DNA of 40,385 bases from a virus (IMGVR_UViG_3300033487_000226:1-40385), one strand, 5' to 3'; shown: positions 5,649 to 36,071, counted from the stretch's first letter. The notes: generated from the letters alone by a model not told the origin. Numbers and translations are program-made.

Positions 5649-7621
5649 ACAGCGATGGATTGACGCCGCACGTTGAGCCGGTTCAACCGCGCTTTGAGCT
5701 GTTGGGGGCTCCGCCAGAGCTGGCCCGTCCACGCAGTGAAGTCGTGGTGAACTACGCTTCTGACGCGCGGGTGGTGGAGCGCATTAAGCGGGAAATCATC
5801 CCGGCGGTGGGGAGCATCCGGGATTCCCGCCAGACGCTCAATGATTTGTGGAACTCGCTGCACAAGGTCTGGACCTTGCAGCACGACGAGAACAAATCAT
5901 ACACGGGGGTTTCCGATATCTACATGCCAGCGGGCAAGCGCGGTACGGAAACCATCGTGACCCAGCTCGTCAGCGCCACCATGCCGGGCGATGACAATTT
6001 CGGGGTGGAAGCCTACAACCCGGCGCGGGCTCAGCAGGCCAACGAGCTGAAGGAGGTGTTGAAGTACCGGATTGATTCAACGGCCAAGGTGCGCGTCATG
6101 CTGGAGCGCTACTACAGGCAGCTTGCAATCACCGGGAACAGCCCAATCAAAATCTACTACCAGCGCAAGGTCATTAACGCGCTGGGGCGGGGGATGAACG
6201 GCGGGCCGACCCCACGTCCTCATGTGGTGTTTGACAGCCCGGTGGTGCAGAGCGTGGACGTCAACAACTTTTACGTTTGGCCCGAAACGGTGAATGACCC
6301 CCAGGATGCTCAAATCATCTTCGAGGATATCACCACGGACTACGCCGGCCTCCTCGCCAAGGCGCGGGCTGGGGTCTACGACAAGGCGGCGGTGCTGGCT
6401 GCTGGCAGGTCGTCCCTGGATTCGTCAAAGACGAACACGGACAACATGCGCCTGTCGTCCCAGGGGTTGTCCTCGCCGCACAACATGACGGCGGATGGGT
6501 GGCGTCGGGTCGATGTGACCGAGGTATGGCTTGATTTCGACCCCATGGCGGCCAGCCGGGAGGAGGAGGAGAACCCAGAGCCGTTCCTGGTCACAATCAC
6601 TTCCACGGGAGAGGTGTTGCGGGCCATCCCCAACCCGTTCTGGCACAAGCGTCCTCCGTACCTGCTGGGGCGCATGGGGACGACGGTGGGCCGGGTTTAC
6701 GGGACTGGCTTCGTTGAGTCTATCCGCGAGCTGAATCGGCTGCTCAATGACCAGACGAATCAGGCCATGGATTGCGCGACCTATGTGCTCAACCCGATTG
6801 TGCTCACCAACCCCAACCTGACGGCAGGCCCGCTTGCTTCGCTGGAGCCCGGGGTGCAGTGGTTGGTGCACGACGTCAACGCGGCGGTGCGCTTCGAGCG
6901 TCCCCCTGTCGAGATGATTCAGGCAGGGTCCATCCTCACCACTGGCACTCAGTCCTGGATTGCGGACTTCATTGGGGCGCCTCCAGTGCTCAGCGGCGGG
7001 AGTTCTCCGGGTCGGGCCTTCCGCACGGCGACGGGAGTAGGGGCTGCGCAGACGAACGCCAAGATGCCGCTTCAGGAAATCGTGCGGCTCAACGAGGCAG
7101 AAGTCTGGGAGCCCATGCTCCACATGATTTGGAGCCTAGACCAGCAATTTGCCAGCGGTGACATTTTCGTCCCAATCATCGGAAAGGACATGCTGCGCGT
7201 GGACGTCAACGCGCTGTCCGGTGATTGGTTGTTCCGGTGGCTTGCCTCCTCACAGACGTCCAATCAGGCAATCAAGGGCTCCCAGATTGCCGAAGCCCTG
7301 CGCATCCTGTCCGACCCGCGCATCATCGACCTGTTCAAGCAGCAGGGTATCCAGGTGAACCCCGAGCCGTTGGTGCGGAGGATGTACCTGGAAGTCTTCG
7401 GCTTCCGGGACGTGGACGAAGTGCTGGTGCGCGGCACCTTGGGCCTGCCACCTGGAGGCCCGGCTGTCCCTGACGTGCGGACGGGACGTCAGCCGTCGTC
7501 GGGTGCTCCCACGGTCCCTGACTTGCCGCCGGAATTGCAGGACAACGAGCCCTTCCAGGAAGTGCGCGGCGAAGCGGACGCTATTGCAGCCCTCATGGGG
7601 GGCGCCGTACCTATCACTTGA
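5645..7621 (+). CDS. Portal protein
   Basis: 658 aa directly after terL (ATGA overlap); VYGTGFVESIRELNRLLNDQTNQAMD and RTATG segments resemble P22-like podophage portals. Confidence 0.85.
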   Translation: MNSDGLTPHVEPVQPRFELLGAPPELARPRSEVVVNYASDARVVERIKREIIPAVGSIRDSRQTLNDLWNSLHKVWTLQHDENKSYTGVSDIYMPAGKRGTETIVTQLVSATMPGDDNFGVEAYNPARAQQANELKEVLKYRIDSTAKVRVMLERYYRQLAITGNSPIKIYYQRKVINALGRGMNGGPTPRPHVVFDSPVVQSVDVNNFYVWPETVNDPQDAQIIFEDITTDYAGLLAKARAGVYDKAAVLAAGRSSLDSSKTNTDNMRLSSQGLSSPHNMTADGWRRVDVTEVWLDFDPMAASREEEENPEPFLVTITSTGEVLRAIPNPFWHKRPPYLLGRMGTTVGRVYGTGFVESIRELNRLLNDQTNQAMDCATYVLNPIVLTNPNLTAGPLASLEPGVQWLVHDVNAAVRFERPPVEMIQAGSILTTGTQSWIADFIGAPPVLSGGSSPGRAFRTATGVGAAQTNAKMPLQEIVRLNEAEVWEPMLHMIWSLDQQFASGDIFVPIIGKDMLRVDVNALSGDWLFRWLASSQTSNQAIKGSQIAEALRILSDPRIIDLFKQQGIQVNPEPLVRRMYLEVFGFRDVDEVLVRGTLGLPPGGPAVPDVRTGRQPSSGAPTVPDLPPELQDNEPFQEVRGEADAIAALMGGAVPIT

Positions 7622-22259: not shown

Positions 22260-24437
22260 TCAGACTTGACTCCACCGCTCTGCAATCTTCGAGTCCGCTG
22301 GGTAGCTGCGCGGCTTCGGTCCAATCTTCCTGGGCCGCCGGATGATATCCTCCATCATCCGGTGGACGCTCTGCGCTTCCTTCTTCGGACAAATCACATC
22401 GAATGAATCGTAGGTGTGCATGGCCAGCCACGCCTTGGGGAAGTAGTGTTTGATGTGGTAGTCCAGGGACTTATTGTAATCACGTTCGTCCGAGCCCACA
22501 AGGATATCGTTGGCCAAATCGGCTGCCCCGGACTGGACTTCGTAGTTGCTGGTCTCCGTGTCCGGGATGGGGTTCCCGGGTGGGTAGTACCGGCGCCGCT
22601 GCATGATGGGGCTCTCGTTGTAGCCATGCAGGTTGGCGAACTCCAGGCTGCGCACCCAATGGGCCGCAATGCCGGGGTGCTGCTCCGGGAAGAGATGGTA
22701 CAGCGTGCTGATTTCGTCAAATGGCGCGTCCGGAATCTGGGCCAGGACTTGGATGTAAACCACCTCCAGTCCGGCATGGTACTGGCAGGCCAGCCCCACC
22801 ACCTTGCCCTGACGGCGAATCATCTTCGGTACCGGGACGTCACTGGGGATGTTGAACCACTGCCGGGCCCTGGCGGTGTGGACGTCCCCGGTGTCCAGCG
22901 CGGCGCGCAGGGCCATGTCCCCCGTCACGTCCGCCATGACTTGCAGCTCGCACCCGCTCAAGTCGAAGTGGACGATGACGTAGCCCTTGGGCGCCACGAA
23001 CATATCGCGGAGATTGGGCAAATCACCTTGAAGCGCCCCGTCCTCCTCCTTCTTCTGCTCGGAGAGGTTATACATATTGGGGTCTTTGCAGGCGAAGCGG
23101 CCGGTCTCCGTGCCGCACGAGTTGTGCGCCGGGTGAATCCGTCCGTCCGAGCCAATCCGCGTCAACACCTTGTCCGAATCAACATGGGTGCTGCGTGCTT
23201 TGAACGGCGCGTCAACCTTCCACACCGTGCGGATGATGCGCTTCAGCTCCGGCGGCGTGTTGGGCTGGGCCATGAGGTAGAGCAGGGCGTTGCGGTTGAC
23301 GGACGCCTTACCCGTTTCCGTGCGGCACTTGTCCACCATCGGCACGTCCAGGTTGAAGCTGTCGATGCCCTTGACGCGACACTCGCCGTAAATCAATGCC
23401 GCAAGGTCCCCGTCGTTGACTCCGCCCTGCGTAGAGATGCGGAAGCCGTGGCCCCGCTCGGCCTTCACCTTCAGTCCGGAGTCCAGGTCCTTGCCGTCGT
23501 TGTGGATGACGACGTTGGCGTAGGGCTTGAGCATGACCGCCAGCTCCTTGGCCCGGGAGATGCCTAGCTCGGTCAGCTCGCGGGACAGCGCCACGCGGCG
23601 CTTCTCGTCCACCGGGAAGCCGTTGATGCTCATGCCGGCTGCCACCTTGGCCAGCCGGAGCTGCTGTTTGTAGAGGCGGAGGACGCGCGGCTTGTCGGCT
23701 GGGTCCTCGTTGAAGTCACGGAGCTGGCCGGTACGGACACGGGCCGCGTAGACCGTATCCTTGCCGTTGTAAATCAGGGCCCGCTCACGGGGAATCCGTG
23801 CCGCGTTGACGAAGCCCTTTTCGTCGCCGTCCTCGCTCTCCGTGGCCTCGGCCTTCCACGGCTCAACGGCGAGGTAGAGGCCGGCTTGGTGCGCAAGCGA
23901 CACCCGCGAGGTGGAGGAGAGCGCGCGGCGGAAGTCGCGCACGTCTTCAATCTCCCCGGCGAACGTGCAGCCATAGCGCTCCAGAATCGGGGCGTCATAG
24001 GCGAAGCCGTTGACGAACAACTTCCCAATGGACGGGTCCGCCATCAACTCTTTGATGCGCTCCCAGATGATGCGCTTCATCGGGAAGAACCAGCTCAACC
24101 CGATGCCATGGTAGAGCTGATTGTCAACCTTGACCTTGCAATCAATGCCGATGCCCACCACGCGCAGCTTGGCGTACATCGGCAGCTTGGCCCACTCGTC
24201 TGGGCCGTTGTCCGGCGGGGCGCTCTCGACGTCCACACTCAGCGGGAGACCGTGCTTGCGCGCGATTCTCTCCAACCACTCCAAGCGCTCCAACGGAGGG
24301 TCGCTGTAAATCAGCGGCGGCAAATCAAAGCCGCTGAGTCCCCGCTTGACGAACCCAACGATGTGAGCTTGAAGCGGGCCAAGCTGCTCGGGCTGCCTGA
24401 AGGTGAACGCTGGATGGATGACGGGAACGCCCCACAT
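22260..24437 (-). CDS. polA: DNA polymerase family A with 3'-5' exonuclease
   Basis: Exo I DVES, Exo II NGFAYD, Exo III YNGKD; TGRF, motif A DLSGCELQ, motif B RRQGKVVGLACQY, motif C YDS; ATG 24437 after GAGG. Confidence 0.93.
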   Translation of the reverse strand: MWGVPVIHPAFTFRQPEQLGPLQAHIVGFVKRGLSGFDLPPLIYSDPPLERLEWLERIARKHGLPLSVDVESAPPDNGPDEWAKLPMYAKLRVVGIGIDCKVKVDNQLYHGIGLSWFFPMKRIIWERIKELMADPSIGKLFVNGFAYDAPILERYGCTFAGEIEDVRDFRRALSSTSRVSLAHQAGLYLAVEPWKAEATESEDGDEKGFVNAARIPRERALIYNGKDTVYAARVRTGQLRDFNEDPADKPRVLRLYKQQLRLAKVAAGMSINGFPVDEKRRVALSRELTELGISRAKELAVMLKPYANVVIHNDGKDLDSGLKVKAERGHGFRISTQGGVNDGDLAALIYGECRVKGIDSFNLDVPMVDKCRTETGKASVNRNALLYLMAQPNTPPELKRIIRTVWKVDAPFKARSTHVDSDKVLTRIGSDGRIHPAHNSCGTETGRFACKDPNMYNLSEQKKEEDGALQGDLPNLRDMFVAPKGYVIVHFDLSGCELQVMADVTGDMALRAALDTGDVHTARARQWFNIPSDVPVPKMIRRQGKVVGLACQYHAGLEVVYIQVLAQIPDAPFDEISTLYHLFPEQHPGIAAHWVRSLEFANLHGYNESPIMQRRRYYPPGNPIPDTETSNYEVQSGAADLANDILVGSDERDYNKSLDYHIKHYFPKAWLAMHTYDSFDVICPKKEAQSVHRMMEDIIRRPRKIGPKPRSYPADSKIAERWSQV

Positions 24438-24439
24438 GA

Positions 24440-24628
24440 TTACTTGCCCTCGTTCTGCTTGATTGCAGTGTGGAGCTGACGCACGCGCTCCATGCACACG
24501 AGCATCTTGTCCACGAGCTGGTCCTCGCGGGCGTCATCCGCGTCGGGATGGAGGAAGCGCTTCAGCGTGTCCTCAAAGAGGAAGAGTTCAGTCAGCCGTT
24601 CGTTCCGGTTCTCGTCGTCGCGTTTCAC
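24440..24628 (-). CDS. Small hypothetical protein (62 aa) between the UDG-like gene and polA
   Basis: GTG start after GGGA; fills the gap almost exactly; charged helical sequence. Confidence 0.6.
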   Translation of the reverse strand: MKRDDENRNERLTELFLFEDTLKRFLHPDADDAREDQLVDKMLVCMERVRQLHTAIKQNEGK

Positions 24629-24641
24629 GGTTGTCCCATCG

Positions 24642-25169
24642 CTAGAATGGAATGTCGTCCTCCACCGGCTCCATGGCGGCGGAGGCTTCCACCGCTTCCC
24701 GTTGAGCGGCTTCGATGTTGATTGGAATGTGAAACCCCTGATACTTCCCCATCCCCTTCACCTCGCCCGTGAGCGCATGCAGCGCCCACTTGCCCATGAC
24801 CAGGACGCCAGCCTCCGGGTCGGCCTGCTTCAGCTCACGCAGCAACCGGGGCCGGCAAGCGGTCATCGCGGCCTTGGCCTCGCTCTCGCTCTTGGAGAGC
24901 GGAGCGCACAGGGCCGCGTTGGTGATGAAGATTTCAGCGCGGGGAACAGGGGGCTTACCCAGCTCACGGAAGGCAGCCTCCCAGAGGTGAGCCAGCCGAG
25001 CGCCCGTGGGTCCGACGAATGGGCGCCCCTTCTTCACCTCGGTGTTGCCCGGGTCCTGGCCGAGCCACACCCAGCGCGCGCCCTTTGGTCCCTCCGGCGG
25101 GACAGGCGTGCTGCCCCGCCGGGGGCAGGCGTCACAGTTTGCTCCGTGCTTGCGCGGGTCGTAGCTCAT
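24642..25169 (-). CDS. Family-4 uracil-DNA glycosylase-like protein lacking the C-terminal HPA motif
   Basis: CDAC, GQDPGNTEVKKGRPFVG, ITNAALC, ACRPRL (four Fe-S-type Cys); ends EDDIPF. Confidence 0.85.
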   Translation of the reverse strand: MSYDPRKHGANCDACPRRGSTPVPPEGPKGARWVWLGQDPGNTEVKKGRPFVGPTGARLAHLWEAAFRELGKPPVPRAEIFITNAALCAPLSKSESEAKAAMTACRPRLLRELKQADPEAGVLVMGKWALHALTGEVKGMGKYQGFHIPINIEAAQREAVEASAAMEPVEDDIPF

Positions 25170-25172
25170 GCG

Positions 25173-25238
25173 TCAAAACCTCCAGCAGAGGAAGGCAATC
25201 ACCAGTAGTGGCACCAGCCACTCGACAAGCCGGCGCAT
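25173..25238 (-). CDS. 21-aa hydrophobic peptide
   Basis: MRRLVEWLVPLLVIAFLCWRF fills the gap between a stop at 25240 and a start at 25169. Confidence 0.45.
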   Translation of the reverse strand: MRRLVEWLVPLLVIAFLCWRF

Positions 25239-26206: not shown

Positions 26207-26827
26207 CTACCACTTCTTGCCCTTGCCCTTGCCCTTGGCGGGGGCCGGCTTCGGCTTCTCCTCCACCTCCTCCGCCTCCGGCTCCTCCTCGCCCGCGCTC
26301 GCGTCGGAGGACCCGTCCTCCGAGTCCGGCGGGGGGAGGTACTTCTTCACCCGGTTGACAGGCTCGCCCTTGTACTCCTCCGTGCTCAGCTCCACGCGCA
26401 GGATGCGGTCGTTCTCGTGGGCCCAGAAGACGATGCTGTCCACCACGTCCATGTACTCGCGCACCTTGGGGGTGTCGAGCGCATGCTCGGGCGTGGGCAG
26501 GTCCACGTCATCGGGGTAGCCCACCGCCTTGGCGAAGTCCCAGATGGTGAAGTACGCCTTGGGGTTGGTGCTCAGAATCATCATGAGCTGCTTGCACTCC
26601 CCGGCCCGGGTCTCGGACTCCGTGCCGAGAATGTCCAGGAACAGGGTGCGGTAGGGGAAGGCGTCCTTCTTGCCCTGCCCGCCGGCCCTCACCTTGTAGC
26701 CCTTGATTCCGCGCTCCCCGACCTTGCCCAGCGACAGCGTGTACTCGCCGTCCTCCGCCGGGGTGTCCCGGGGCCTGGAGTCCCGGGGGTTGAACTTGAT
26801 GCGACCAGCCTCGCCAGTGGCGCCCAT
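26207..26827 (-). CDS. Single-stranded DNA-binding protein (DUF669-like)
   Basis: EDGEYTL...EEYKGEPVNRVKKY followed by an acidic linker; adjacent to the Sak4-like gene. Confidence 0.65.
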   Translation of the reverse strand: MGATGEAGRIKFNPRDSRPRDTPAEDGEYTLSLGKVGERGIKGYKVRAGGQGKKDAFPYRTLFLDILGTESETRAGECKQLMMILSTNPKAYFTIWDFAKAVGYPDDVDLPTPEHALDTPKVREYMDVVDSIVFWAHENDRILRVELSTEEYKGEPVNRVKKYLPPPDSEDGSSDASAGEEEPEAEEVEEKPKPAPAKGKGKGKKW

Positions 26828-32613: not shown

Positions 32614-33078
32614 TCAGAAGGGTACATCATCCACCGCTTGCGGTGGAAGCTGCTCGTCAGCCATGACGTCTTCCTCGTCACGGTGATTATAGTGGTCGCT
32701 GAGCCGGGCGTTGCAGTGCTCACCCACCACCCGGAGGCGCACACCAGCCTTGAACTCAGCAATCATAATGTCGATGCGCTCCTCTTGACCGTAGCTGCGC
32801 AGGGGTTTGCGCCACAGCTCAGAGCGCCCGTCCATGTGGTCGATGCTCGGCTTGCCACACTCCCTCCCACCCGGGCAGGTTGGCGCCGTGCAGGACGGGC
32901 CGCCAAGCTGCTCAATCAACCATGCTCGCTTCTCGCGAATGCGCCGCTTGCGCAACAGATGCGTCTTCCGGTTGAGGTGCTTGCGGTACAGCGCACGAAT
33001 CAGCAGCGCATACCATGCCCGCTTGAGGCCCGGCAGCTTGAGAAACAGCAGGTAGAGAGGGAGCGGGCGCTTCACCAC
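32614..33078 (-). CDS. HNH endonuclease-like protein with acidic DDVPF tail
   Basis: LGGPSC..C...IDH...LRVVGEHCN (Gly where CxxCN usually has its first Cys). Confidence 0.6.
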   Translation of the reverse strand: MVKRPLPLYLLFLKLPGLKRAWYALLIRALYRKHLNRKTHLLRKRRIREKRAWLIEQLGGPSCTAPTCPGGRECGKPSIDHMDGRSELWRKPLRSYGQEERIDIMIAEFKAGVRLRVVGEHCNARLSDHYNHRDEEDVMADEQLPPQAVDDVPF

Positions 33079-33566
33079 GGCACGTCATCCTCCAGCTTGT
33101 GGTCGCGTCGCAGGTTGGTGGCCAGCTCCTCCTCCAGCTCGTCAGCGCTGTAGACCGGCCCAGCAGCGTCAGCCTGTTCAATCAGCTCCAACAGCTCCGC
33201 CTTGTCGGCCTCGCTGTAGTCACCGCCCATGACAGCCTCGGACGGCGGGCTGCCCTGGTGCAGAGCCTCGGCCTGCCAGAGCCAGAGCTGATTCAACGCA
33301 GCCCACAAATCAGCGGTGCTGGAGAAGCACCGCAAGCCAGCCTCCAACTCCTCCACCTCTCTCCAGTAGATGCTCCAGCCGCGCGCCACATCCGCCGTGT
33401 CCAGGCAGCACACCAGCCGCATGCTCTTAAAGATGACGCCGTGACGTGAGTTGTACTCACGGCGGCCCGCTTCCGTCAAAGCGCCTAGCGGCCCCTCGTG
33501 AGCAGTCAACGGAACAGGAGCCAGCTTCACGGTTCGCCAAGTGAATCGGAACTGAGACAGGCTCAC
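33072..33566 (-). CDS. Hypothetical protein with acidic DDVPW tail
   Basis: GTG 33566 after GGAGG, overlapping the upstream stop. Confidence 0.65.
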   Translation of the reverse strand: MSLSQFRFTWRTVKLAPVPLTAHEGPLGALTEAGRREYNSRHGVIFKSMRLVCCLDTADVARGWSIYWREVEELEAGLRCFSSTADLWAALNQLWLWQAEALHQGSPPSEAVMGGDYSEADKAELLELIEQADAAGPVYSADELEEELATNLRRDHKLEDDVPW

Positions 33567-33892
33567 CGCCGCACCTCCAACTTGTCCAACACGCCCGACT
33601 TCTTGAGCAGCTCGGCCACCCCCCACGCCTGCATGTGGATGGGCCGGTGGATGAACGGGGTGAGCGGCAACAGCGTCCACTCACCATTGAGCCAGCCGTT
33701 GACGTACTCCACGAACGCCAGCTCCGCCTGCCCCTCCGCCCACTCCGTGTAGTAGAGAGTCCTGTGAAGGTTGCTATCAATCATGATGTGGTCACGCTCG
33801 GCACAGACAGCACGCTTGATATGCCCGATGAAATCAGAGTTGGCGGCGCGTACCAGCACCATGAGATGGTTGAAATCACGAATCGGCTTCAT
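33563..33892 (-). CDS. Hypothetical protein (109 aa)
   Basis: ATG 33892 after AAAGGA; coupled to the downstream gene. Confidence 0.65.
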   Translation of the reverse strand: MKPIRDFNHLMVLVRAANSDFIGHIKRAVCAERDHIMIDSNLHRTLYYTEWAEGQAELAFVEYVNGWLNGEWTLLPLTPFIHRPIHMQAWGVAELLKKSGVLDKLEVRR

Positions 33893-34823: not shown

Positions 34824-36071
34824 TCAGCTCGCCTTCCGTTCCAGCGCGTTCCAGCCCACCGCCACCAGCCGGCCGGCGGCCCGCTCCACGTCCCCCGCCA
34901 CGTCCATGTCGAGCTGCTGGCTGCCACGGGTGAGCGCGTTGACGAGCCCGGCCAGCGTGTCCCCCGCCGACTTGTTGCCATCCGCGTCCCAGAGCTTGGC
35001 GGTCAGCTCCATGGTGGAGTCGGCCAGCTCGAACACCTTCTGCACCTTGCCCAGCACCTCGCCCCGGGTGGCGGGCAGCGGGTTCTTGTAGGCGTCCCCG
35101 AACATGATGGCGAACGGCTCGATGCGCTCCAGCGCCCGACGCACCGCCTGCACCAGCTTGTAGCGCAGGTCTCCGACGTGCTTCAGGCTGATTTCCTCCT
35201 CCTTCGCGTCCGAGGTGAAGGCCGTCGTGAAGTTGGCGCACAGCACGCGGAGCAGGAACGCCTCGACCTTCAGCGCCCCGGCCTTGGTCTCGCTGTTGCT
35301 GATTCGCACGCCGCCCATGGCCACGTCGCCCACCACCAGGGGCCGGTTAATCATCGGCCAAATCAGCTCCATCTGCGAACGGCTCAGCTCCCTGGTGTAG
35401 CGCACCTTCGCCTGACGCAGGGAGTCCGGCATCTTCTCCTCCATGACGGCGACGACGGCGGAATCGTCGCCCGTCACGAGGCTGTGCTTGCTGGAGGTGA
35501 CAGCGCGGATGACGCGCGCCCCGGAGTGCGGCTCCACCACGGTGCGCAGCGTCATGGAGTCGCTGTCCCGGCGCTGCTGCGCGTGGTAGTTGAAGGCGTC
35601 GGCCCGGATGTGATTGGGCAGAGAGAGCAGGGTGCTCTGGTAGCCCTGGCGCACGGAGTCCGGGCGGATGAAGGTCGTCACCTGGGAGAAGCCGTCCCCG
35701 GTGTAGCCCAGCGCGTCGTCCGGGTTGGTGTCCGGGGCGTCCTGGTAGAGCCGGCCCGTCCGGGGGTTCATCCGCACGGTTTGAATCGGGATGTTGCCGT
35801 AGTCCTCCGGGCGCTCCTGCTCCAGGCGCAGCTTGATGGCGGGCAAGGCGTCCATGAAGTACGGCAGGCGCTCCAGCTCCGTGGCCAGCGCGCGCTTGTT
35901 GGTCTCGCCCACGTCCCAGAGGGCGTGACCCTCGGGGAGGATGGTCTTGGGGAGGCGGAGGCCCTGCGCCTCGCACAGGGCCTTCAGCAGGTCGTTGCGC
36001 TGCTCGAAGCTCATTTCGCTGGCATGGCTGGGGCGGGCCCCCCGGCCGGTAATGCTGGTGACGTTGCTCAT
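34824..36071 (-). CDS. DUF932-like early protein (415 aa)
   Basis: GVRISNSETKAGALKVEAFLLRVLCAN resembles the DUF932 NS...R..C.N motif; strong codon bias. Confidence 0.65.
   Translation of the reverse strand: MSNVTSITGRGARPSHASEMSFEQRNDLLKALCEAQGLRLPKTILPEGHALWDVGETNKRALATELERLPYFMDALPAIKLRLEQERPEDYGNIPIQTVRMNPRTGRLYQDAPDTNPDDALGYTGDGFSQVTTFIRPDSVRQGYQSTLLSLPNHIRADAFNYHAQQRRDSDSMTLRTVVEPHSGARVIRAVTSSKHSLVTGDDSAVVAVMEEKMPDSLRQAKVRYTRELSRSQMELIWPMINRPLVVGDVAMGGVRISNSETKAGALKVEAFLLRVLCANFTTAFTSDAKEEEISLKHVGDLRYKLVQAVRRALERIEPFAIMFGDAYKNPLPATRGEVLGKVQKVFELADSTMELTAKLWDADGNKSAGDTLAGLVNALTRGSQQLDMDVAGDVERAAGRLVAVGWNALERKAS

Follow-up and report, generated by a model that had tools for sequence, protein, structure and literature searches.

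A phage uracil-DNA glycosylase apparently divided between its own gene and the start of the DNA polymerase gene

The stretch of viral DNA analysed here (IMGVR_UViG_3300033487_000226, 40,385 nucleotides; hereafter the window) is a ~40-kb tailed-phage genome, in which a Pfam-type scan of the open reading frames (ORFs) placed terminase, portal and capsid genes on the plus strand, and a SNF2 helicase, a PD-(D/E)XK nuclease, an AAA ATPase, a uracil-DNA glycosylase (UDG) and a family-A DNA polymerase (PolA) on the minus strand. The last two genes are the subject of this study: the UDG gene encodes only part of a glycosylase (UDG-N), and the missing part appears to lie in the first residues of the polymerase (UDG-C; Table 1). 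A scan of genome contigs found no relative of the window phage and hence gave no clue to its host, and single-protein scans of viral contigs gave almost no matches.

UDG-N carries GQDPG (motif A) at residues 37–41, E44, F51, N84 and four cysteines (C12, C15, C88 and C105), and has no HP motif (motif B); motif A, the four cysteines and the lack of HP are as the original prediction had read from this ORF. The Pfam UDG family matched it with E 2e-18 and covered profile positions 1–101 of 141. Folded alone, it was modelled with a per-residue confidence (pLDDT) of 92, and the closest folds to this model were 1vk2, UdgX, 4zbx and 1ui0 (Z 12–13), followed by family 5 (Z 9.9) and MUG/TDG (about 8); as modelled, the fold is nearest to family 4. 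The alignments with the Thermus thermophilus enzyme 1ui0 (residues 4–148, Z 12.3, root-mean-square deviation 3.0, 140 aligned) and with the phiLo enzyme 9qhs (residues 34–171, Z 7.6, deviation 3.3, 123 aligned) both ended before the motif B histidine, His155 and His178, respectively. The four cysteines occupy the positions of T. thermophilus C13, C16, C84 and C100 and are present in 30–33 of 33 homologues, the rest being gaps; we take these positions to serve an Fe-S cluster in family 4, a role that is putative for UDG-N.

The homologues came from a search spanning proteins of 96–307 aa, so that fusions could not be counted, yet an intact stand-alone enzyme would have shown. It gave 35 matches, 33 of which were aligned; two were set aside, one being a 111-aa fragment and the other a distant 199-aa protein (also ending before motif B). 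The Q, D, E and N were each conserved in 32/33 sequences and the F in 33/33, and motif B was present in none of these 33 short proteins, its histidine sitting on the polymerase instead. In all, 32 further UDG-N proteins (46–66% identity) retain the catalytic residues and stop at the same place. Mean column identity in the window's clade was 34%, whereas the pocket residues of both pieces were nearly invariant.

The polymerase starts at ATG 24437 (MWGVPVIHPA), and an identical 725-aa call was present in the protein collection; an upstream in-frame GTG at 24497 would add 20 codons with a GC content at third codon positions (GC3) of 0.35, against 0.83–0.96 in neighbouring genes. Matches to PF00476 (E 1e-29), to the exonuclease family (E 1e-4) and, with Foldseek, to Klenow (E 1e-23), together with catalytic residues of the exonuclease (D69/E71, N143/D148 and Y223/D227) and polymerase (D492, K545, Y553 and D677) whose motifs were invariant in 21 rows, identify it as a family-A DNA polymerase with a 3'-5' exonuclease, a Klenow-like fold and the catalytic motifs. 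Residue 549, four residues past Lys545 of polymerase motif B, is Leu in the window and Phe in most relatives; we take it to correspond to PolA position 762.

The first 45 polymerase residues alone had no match in Pfam, and their assignment as the end of a UDG therefore depends on fused relatives. The alignment with one of these (L011), continuous through motif B, bore out the proposal that the polymerase ORF opens with the missing strand, the HPA motif and the final helix. Close polymerase homologues comprised 26 proteins at 45–57% identity, after which identity dropped to about 25%. Among 21 aligned homologues, the N-terminal strand was found in 18 and HP in 16 of those 18; the other three were called further downstream, and for two of them the locus shows an upstream start. 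The histidine was retained in 24 of 26 split polymerases of the close clade.

Both pieces occur in one chain in L011 (873 aa), L008, L009, L014, P0218, P0226 and P0230. L011 is 54% identical to the window polymerase and has a linker of about 9 aa (6–100 aa in other fused forms); its first 212 residues matched 1ui0 residues 12–192 (E 3e-9), with His155 counted off the alignment. In L011 and L009 the Pfam UDG profile was covered as far as position 127 of 141, in UDG-N only as far as 101, and the polymerase N-terminus was matched only through such fused relatives. A search for longer proteins gave two distant fused proteins and missed the close ones. UDG, exonuclease and polymerase form a single polypeptide in L011 and L008, whereas in the window four stops and a further gene lie between UDG-N and the polymerase. 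As judged from these comparisons, a UDG-PolA has undergone gene fission within its UDG domain, and this fission is conserved, in line with the original prediction of a split fusion. Two fused forms (L008, 4836–7856, and P0240) have long low-complexity linkers (100 aa and about 55 aa, respectively) that start like the tails of split forms, and are possible re-fusions.

To see how often the break occurs, we compared 16 distinct evaluable arrangements from the clade of the window and from its sister clade, with duplicates merged and five loci without the region set aside. The UDG was split at this site in 10 of them (the window itself, designated L019, together with L002, L003, L004, L006, L007, L012, L023, L024 and L027) and whole in six (L008, L009, L011, L014, L026 and L030). 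The same breakpoint, which had been suggested as a check, was thus found in nine further distinct loci, two of them GenBank records, and UDG-N was kept upstream of the polymerase in all 10 split loci. The gaps between the pieces measured -4, -4, 106, 195, 204, 304, 484, 877, 1048 and 1307 nt, with all three frames represented and a shared frame in 2/10. They were filled by small genes without assigned function, by a dATP/dGTP diphosphohydrolase (PF18909; L006 5857–6300 and L007 5857–6321) or by an annotated RNA ligase, and in some loci fillers were absent. At the polymerase starts, a Shine-Dalgarno-like motif was observed in seven of the 10 split loci and an overlap with the upstream stop in three. 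L024 and L027 each have a 4-nt overlap of the two genes, with a polymerase frame that stays open further upstream; L024 is perhaps of low quality (it has another frameshift), and both overlaps could be sequencing indels. A profile search of 1.84 billion representatives revealed many more fused and split forms. Among the database polymerases, 36 were scored as split, and in 29 of these the start lies 6–7 residues ahead of the His position; since these proteins were chosen for a start near the strand, only the positional exactness is informative.

Distant lineages (P0156, P0276 and P0185) show the same break, with a 199-aa UDG that stops short of motif B and with polymerases beginning at the strand. 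A second recurrent break was noticed within the exonuclease domain, where it separates the motifs located near residues 158 and 163 of the polymerase, in L009 (5939/7202), L014 (5438/6389) and L023, and in proteins P0019, P0024, P0026, P0028, P0233, P0235 and P0275; the polymerase is apparently in three pieces in L023, P0233, P0235 and P0275. Ten sister-clade proteins with fused UDG and exonuclease (P0201, P0207, P0209, P0210, P0213, P0215, P0219–P0221 and P0223) stop at 560–630 aa inside the polymerase domain, which is probably a third break site. A 154-aa protein of the window (32614–33078, minus strand) has homologues in the exonuclease-splitting gap (L009/L025; L009 6135–6626, E 0.008) and, in L002, downstream of the polymerase (7038–7550, E 2e-4); it has no Pfam match, and we take it to be HNH-like by its motif.

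Phylogenetic trees were reconstructed on the polymerase, with 92 rows in FastTree and, in IQ-TREE, a subset of 40 rows (29 split and 11 intact) consisting mostly of full-length members of the two clades. Split and intact forms interleaved in both, and the fused L011 was sister to the split P0004 with support 100. At least eight state changes were required, and the split or intact state was barely clustered, as equally few sufficed in 42 of 500 label shuffles. A single origin of the split was rejected (p-AU 8e-14 with all split rows together and 3e-49 with the 23 split rows of the close clade). The split therefore recurs or reverts along the tree and is not one event. Distant fused UDG-PolAs suggest that fusion was the ancestral state. 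The interleaving fits repeated fission, re-fusion or recombination alike, and where a row has no locus its label depends on the gene call.

Structure prediction of the UDG fragment with the polymerase, another check proposed at the outset, placed the first polymerase strand within the UDG sheet. Folded alone, the polymerase had a mean pLDDT of 86, with residues 1–24 below 50. In the complex model, polymerase residues 2–6 pair with UDG-N 121–125 and 146–148, the helix at 21–34 packs onto UDG-N 54–75, and exonuclease residues 182–199 are also in contact. The model scored 0.90, against 0.00 for the best of three controls, with at least 98% of contacts common to runs and a partner pLDDT of at least 87; the mark applied was attained by 116 of 157 solved complexes and by 2 of 215 mismatched pairs. 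This docking geometry is a prediction.

The predicted pocket residues are distributed over both pieces. The uracil pocket of T. thermophilus UDGa consists of E41, G42, E47, F54, N80 and H155 (PMC5387724), and these correspond to Q38, D39, E44, F51 and N84 of UDG-N and H8 of the polymerase, with all six positions kept. In that enzyme, H155S lowers k2 more than 1000-fold, and E41Q and G42D are each damaging, whereas the double mutant is back to 4.5e4, about a fifth of the wild type (2.4e5) (PMC5387724). The motif A doublet of UDG-N is likewise QD and not the EG/EA of family 4, the remainder of the motif being family-4-like; Gln-Asp is typical of family 1 (Xia, 2017; PMC5387724). By analogy with family 1, Asp39 may take over water activation, given that the position of the water-positioning N89 is mostly Lys in these proteins.

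We propose that a UDG-PolA fusion was cut into two genes in the loop ahead of the last UDG strand, and that the two proteins are likely translated separately and would rejoin without a covalent link. The first strand of the polymerase would slot into the UDG sheet and place His8 at the uracil pocket; because this histidine is delivered by the polymerase, the glycosylase would be functional only when docked there. The docked pair would excise template uracil ahead of the fork, by analogy with the fused phiLo and YerA41 enzymes, for which such dU excision is reported (PMC13697223). The loop may be a permissive site at which cutting or rejoining happens again and again, with the gap afterwards taking in unrelated genes. 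Reassembly in trans, as originally predicted, is supported by the retention of both pieces in all 10 split loci and by the complex model, and non-covalent association is likely. That the reassembled pair is an active, polymerase-dependent glycosylase is the best explanation of the data and on balance a probable one.

An opposite reading is that the two genes still yield one chain, by ribosomal bypass, frameshift, RNA splicing or a split intein. The parts in the window share a frame, in which four stops were counted (several had been predicted), and the overlaps in L024 and L027 could be joined through the open frame by a frameshift or a sequencing indel. However, the gaps range from -4 to 1307 nt over three frames, the fillers differ and may be whole unrelated genes (dATP/dGTP diphosphohydrolase, RNA ligase), and the polymerases have start signals of their own. 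In the window, the predicted ribosome-binding sites were present ahead of both starts (GGAGG and GAGGG), and the 62-aa ORF that had been seen between the parts is gene-like, with a GC3 of 0.83; its product had no Pfam or PHROG match, only Atlas matches below 0.9 and no homologue among the ORFs of other loci. The 8-nt repeat TGGAATGT does bracket the UDG tail at the predicted positions, but its kilobase contains 16 repeated 8-mers in all, compared with 20–43 in 18 other kilobases, and it was rejected as an insertion scar or bypass signal; the shared frame was rejected as a sign of readthrough, being common to 2/10 split loci only. Given such gaps, fillers and frames, we regard both features as incidental and bypass or splicing as unlikely. 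A search for intron or bypass RNA gave no Rfam match in seven sources and no promoter or terminator match, and the gap RNA folded no better than shuffles (z -0.95). Neither a Pfam intein match nor intein halves at the inner ends of the pieces were detected, and room for them is absent: the polymerase begins right at the UDG strand, and the UDG-N tails are 5–50 aa long and unrelated. As for a homing endonuclease of the mobE type, the window filler belongs to no family and a weak HNH match (E 0.18) was seen in the L007 gap only. Taken together, a single chain is very unlikely. Misassembly or a decaying pseudogene limited to this contig is hardly tenable: about half of read run X1 contained no junction-covering reads and was uninformative, but the break recurs in the nine other loci, and the 32 further UDG-N proteins end at the same point with their catalytic residues.

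A more serious alternative, although clearly less probable than an active enzyme, is that the pieces dock and the rebuilt domain is mainly structural, serving processivity or strand displacement as in UDG-PolAs without catalytic residues; such a role is proposed in PMC10201439 and PMC13697223. It is a live rival because some relatives keep both pieces after losing the histidine: UDG-N is retained in L012 although the L012 polymerase has no such residue, and many UDG domains of the sister clade have a decayed motif A. Against it stand the near invariance of the pocket residues in the window's clade and the Gln-Asp doublet, which corresponds to a co-adapted, active pair (PMC5387724). It is quite unlikely that UDG-N acts alone via Asp39, with the polymerase segment as a remnant. 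UDG-N by itself is modelled confidently and a motif-2 His is absent from families 2 and 6 (PMC5387724), but UDG-N would lack a core strand and helix, the polymerase conserves both the His and the precise position of its start, and the His is worth about 1000-fold in family 4. Several further observations weigh against an active reassembled glycosylase. The histidine is missing in 8/42 split and 4/45 intact proteins (rows including near-duplicates), and the N89 position is Lys in 22/33 UDG-N homologues. The split labels of database proteins without loci depend on called starts. The complex model indicates compatibility, not binding, because halves of a split gene would pass by their likeness to solved one-chain folds. 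Finally, no base-modification gene was found in scans of 33 window ORFs and of 29 ORFs, many of which are unannotated, in contrast to SP15/SPO1-type phages.

[quoted passage not shown] An end of the form [DE][IV][PS]F was found in 11/33 UDG-N proteins and in 3/1845 other reading frames of at least 100 aa in the loci, a set that includes many spurious frames and in which two of the three such ends are UDG-N itself. The trait requires at least six changes on the UDG-N tree. Other tails are Lys-rich or just 5–6 aa in length, and docking therefore does not require the tail; it lies outside the confident part of the modelled interface, which has no bearing on whether it binds. A more elaborate version, which we consider doubtful, is a polymerase-gated detachable glycosylase, in which the DIPF tail mimics SSB and recruits SSB-binding repair proteins to the new abasic site, and the break is a reversible switch between one and two chains; with the catalytic His kept on the replicase, uracil would be excised only at the phage's own fork and free UDG-N would be harmless. 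Two adjacent ORFs of the window (33072–33680 and 32614–33078, minus strand) end in EDDVPW and DDVPF, making three proteins with SSB-like tails in the genome. A candidate SSB at 26207–26827, guessed from position and without a family match, has no such tail. Elsewhere, the early region (34824–36071, minus strand) encodes a 415-aa DUF932-like protein (weak Pfam match, PHROG 1362).

Table 1. Features of the divided UDG-PolA locus in the window.
Feature	Position	Strand	Remarks
UDG-N gene, 175 aa	24642..25169	-	Residues ~1-149 of family-4 UDG, with motif A, the four Cys, E44, F51 and N84, and a 25-aa tail
Motif A GQDPG, family-1-type Gln-Asp doublet in a family-4 scaffold	25047..25061	-	Q 32/33 and D 32/33 homologues
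Non-UDG tail of UDG-N	24642..24719	-	Predicted helix 152-164; end EDDIPF, like SSB C-terminal DDDIPF
62-aa filler gene, no family assigned	24440..24628	-	Stop 2 nt ahead of polymerase ATG; no homologue in ORFs of other loci
Shine-Dalgarno-like GAGGG	24447..24451	-	9 nt ahead of polymerase ATG
UDG-C, polymerase residues 1-37	24327..24437	-	Final strand of the UDG, motif B His8-Pro-Ala (codons 24416-24408), closing helix
Family-A DNA polymerase, 725 aa	22260..24437	-	UDG-C, 3'-5' exonuclease and polymerase
Shine-Dalgarno-like GGAGG	25179..25183	-	Precedes UDG-N ATG
8-nt direct repeat TGGAATGT	24648-24655, 24723-24730		Chance level, no part in mechanism

If a polymerase-dependent glycosylase is indeed formed, it would be a natural case in which the active site of one enzyme is finished by the N-terminus of another, tying repair to the replicase without fusion. 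As the UDG domain can then be added or omitted as a subunit, the question of repair versus processivity, open in the UDG-PolA papers, would become directly testable. It would also serve as a warning that some 'stand-alone UDG' genes beside PolA in phages may be half-enzymes, and would offer a naturally occurring point of division for building a switchable UDG, as well as a natural family-4 enzyme with Gln-Asp that matches the engineered mutant. In the literature searched, which includes few subscription papers, we found no description of a UDG split between its own gene and the polymerase. The words 'split' and 'fission' do not occur in the available text of PMC13697223, and the main text of Yutin 2024 (PMC11348598), cited for UDG in trans, contains no UDG, uracil or glycosylase.

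Single-chain UDG-PolAs (SPO1-like phages; SP15-like phiLo/YerA41, PDB 9qhs; N4-like cluster 17) share with the window a family-4 UDG N-terminal to exonuclease and polymerase and the conserved Glu and His (E53 and H178 in phiLo) (PMC10201439, PMC13697223). In the window, by contrast, the domain is cut internally into two genes and motif A has Gln-Asp; it also lacks the large inserts of the SP15 type (725 + 175 aa against 1142–1306), and the base-modification genes of the SPO1/SP15 groups were not found among the ORFs scanned. The T. thermophilus UDGa (1ui0) has the same fold, the four Cys and the equivalents of E47, F54, N80 and H155, whereas the window has a natural Gln-Asp doublet (matching the engineered E41Q-G42D), Lys at the N89 position and two chains (PMC5387724). 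The poxvirus UDG E4 is likewise separately encoded and placed on the replicative polymerase (cited after PMC13697223), but E4 is a UDG protein in its own right and its polymerase belongs to family B, whereas here the polymerase itself would supply part of the UDG active site. The T7-like PolA of S-SBP1, split into exonuclease and polymerase, is also a family-A fission with predicted reassociation; it is cut between domains, and the window inside a domain, parting active-site residues (PMC10201439).

A further parallel is with phage genes-in-pieces, namely Aeh1 NrdA-a/b, split by mobE, and gp43A/gp43B of Aeromonas phages 25 and 44RR (PMC3045599, PMC2988022). UDG-N/PolA is likewise contiguous in relatives and broken into parts that are likely translated separately. 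The break lies inside a functional domain, foreign genes occupy the gap and new tails arise at the break, and non-covalent reassembly is predicted here, whereas split Aeh1 NrdA (PMC2988022) and split gp43A/B (PMC3045599) assemble into active enzymes. Unlike these, the window's family has no conserved homing endonuclease in the gap, where fillers vary or are absent, and its tail is dispensable in some relatives (5–6 aa). Furthermore, its UDG break recurs over a wide tree and would complete one enzyme on the N-terminus of another.

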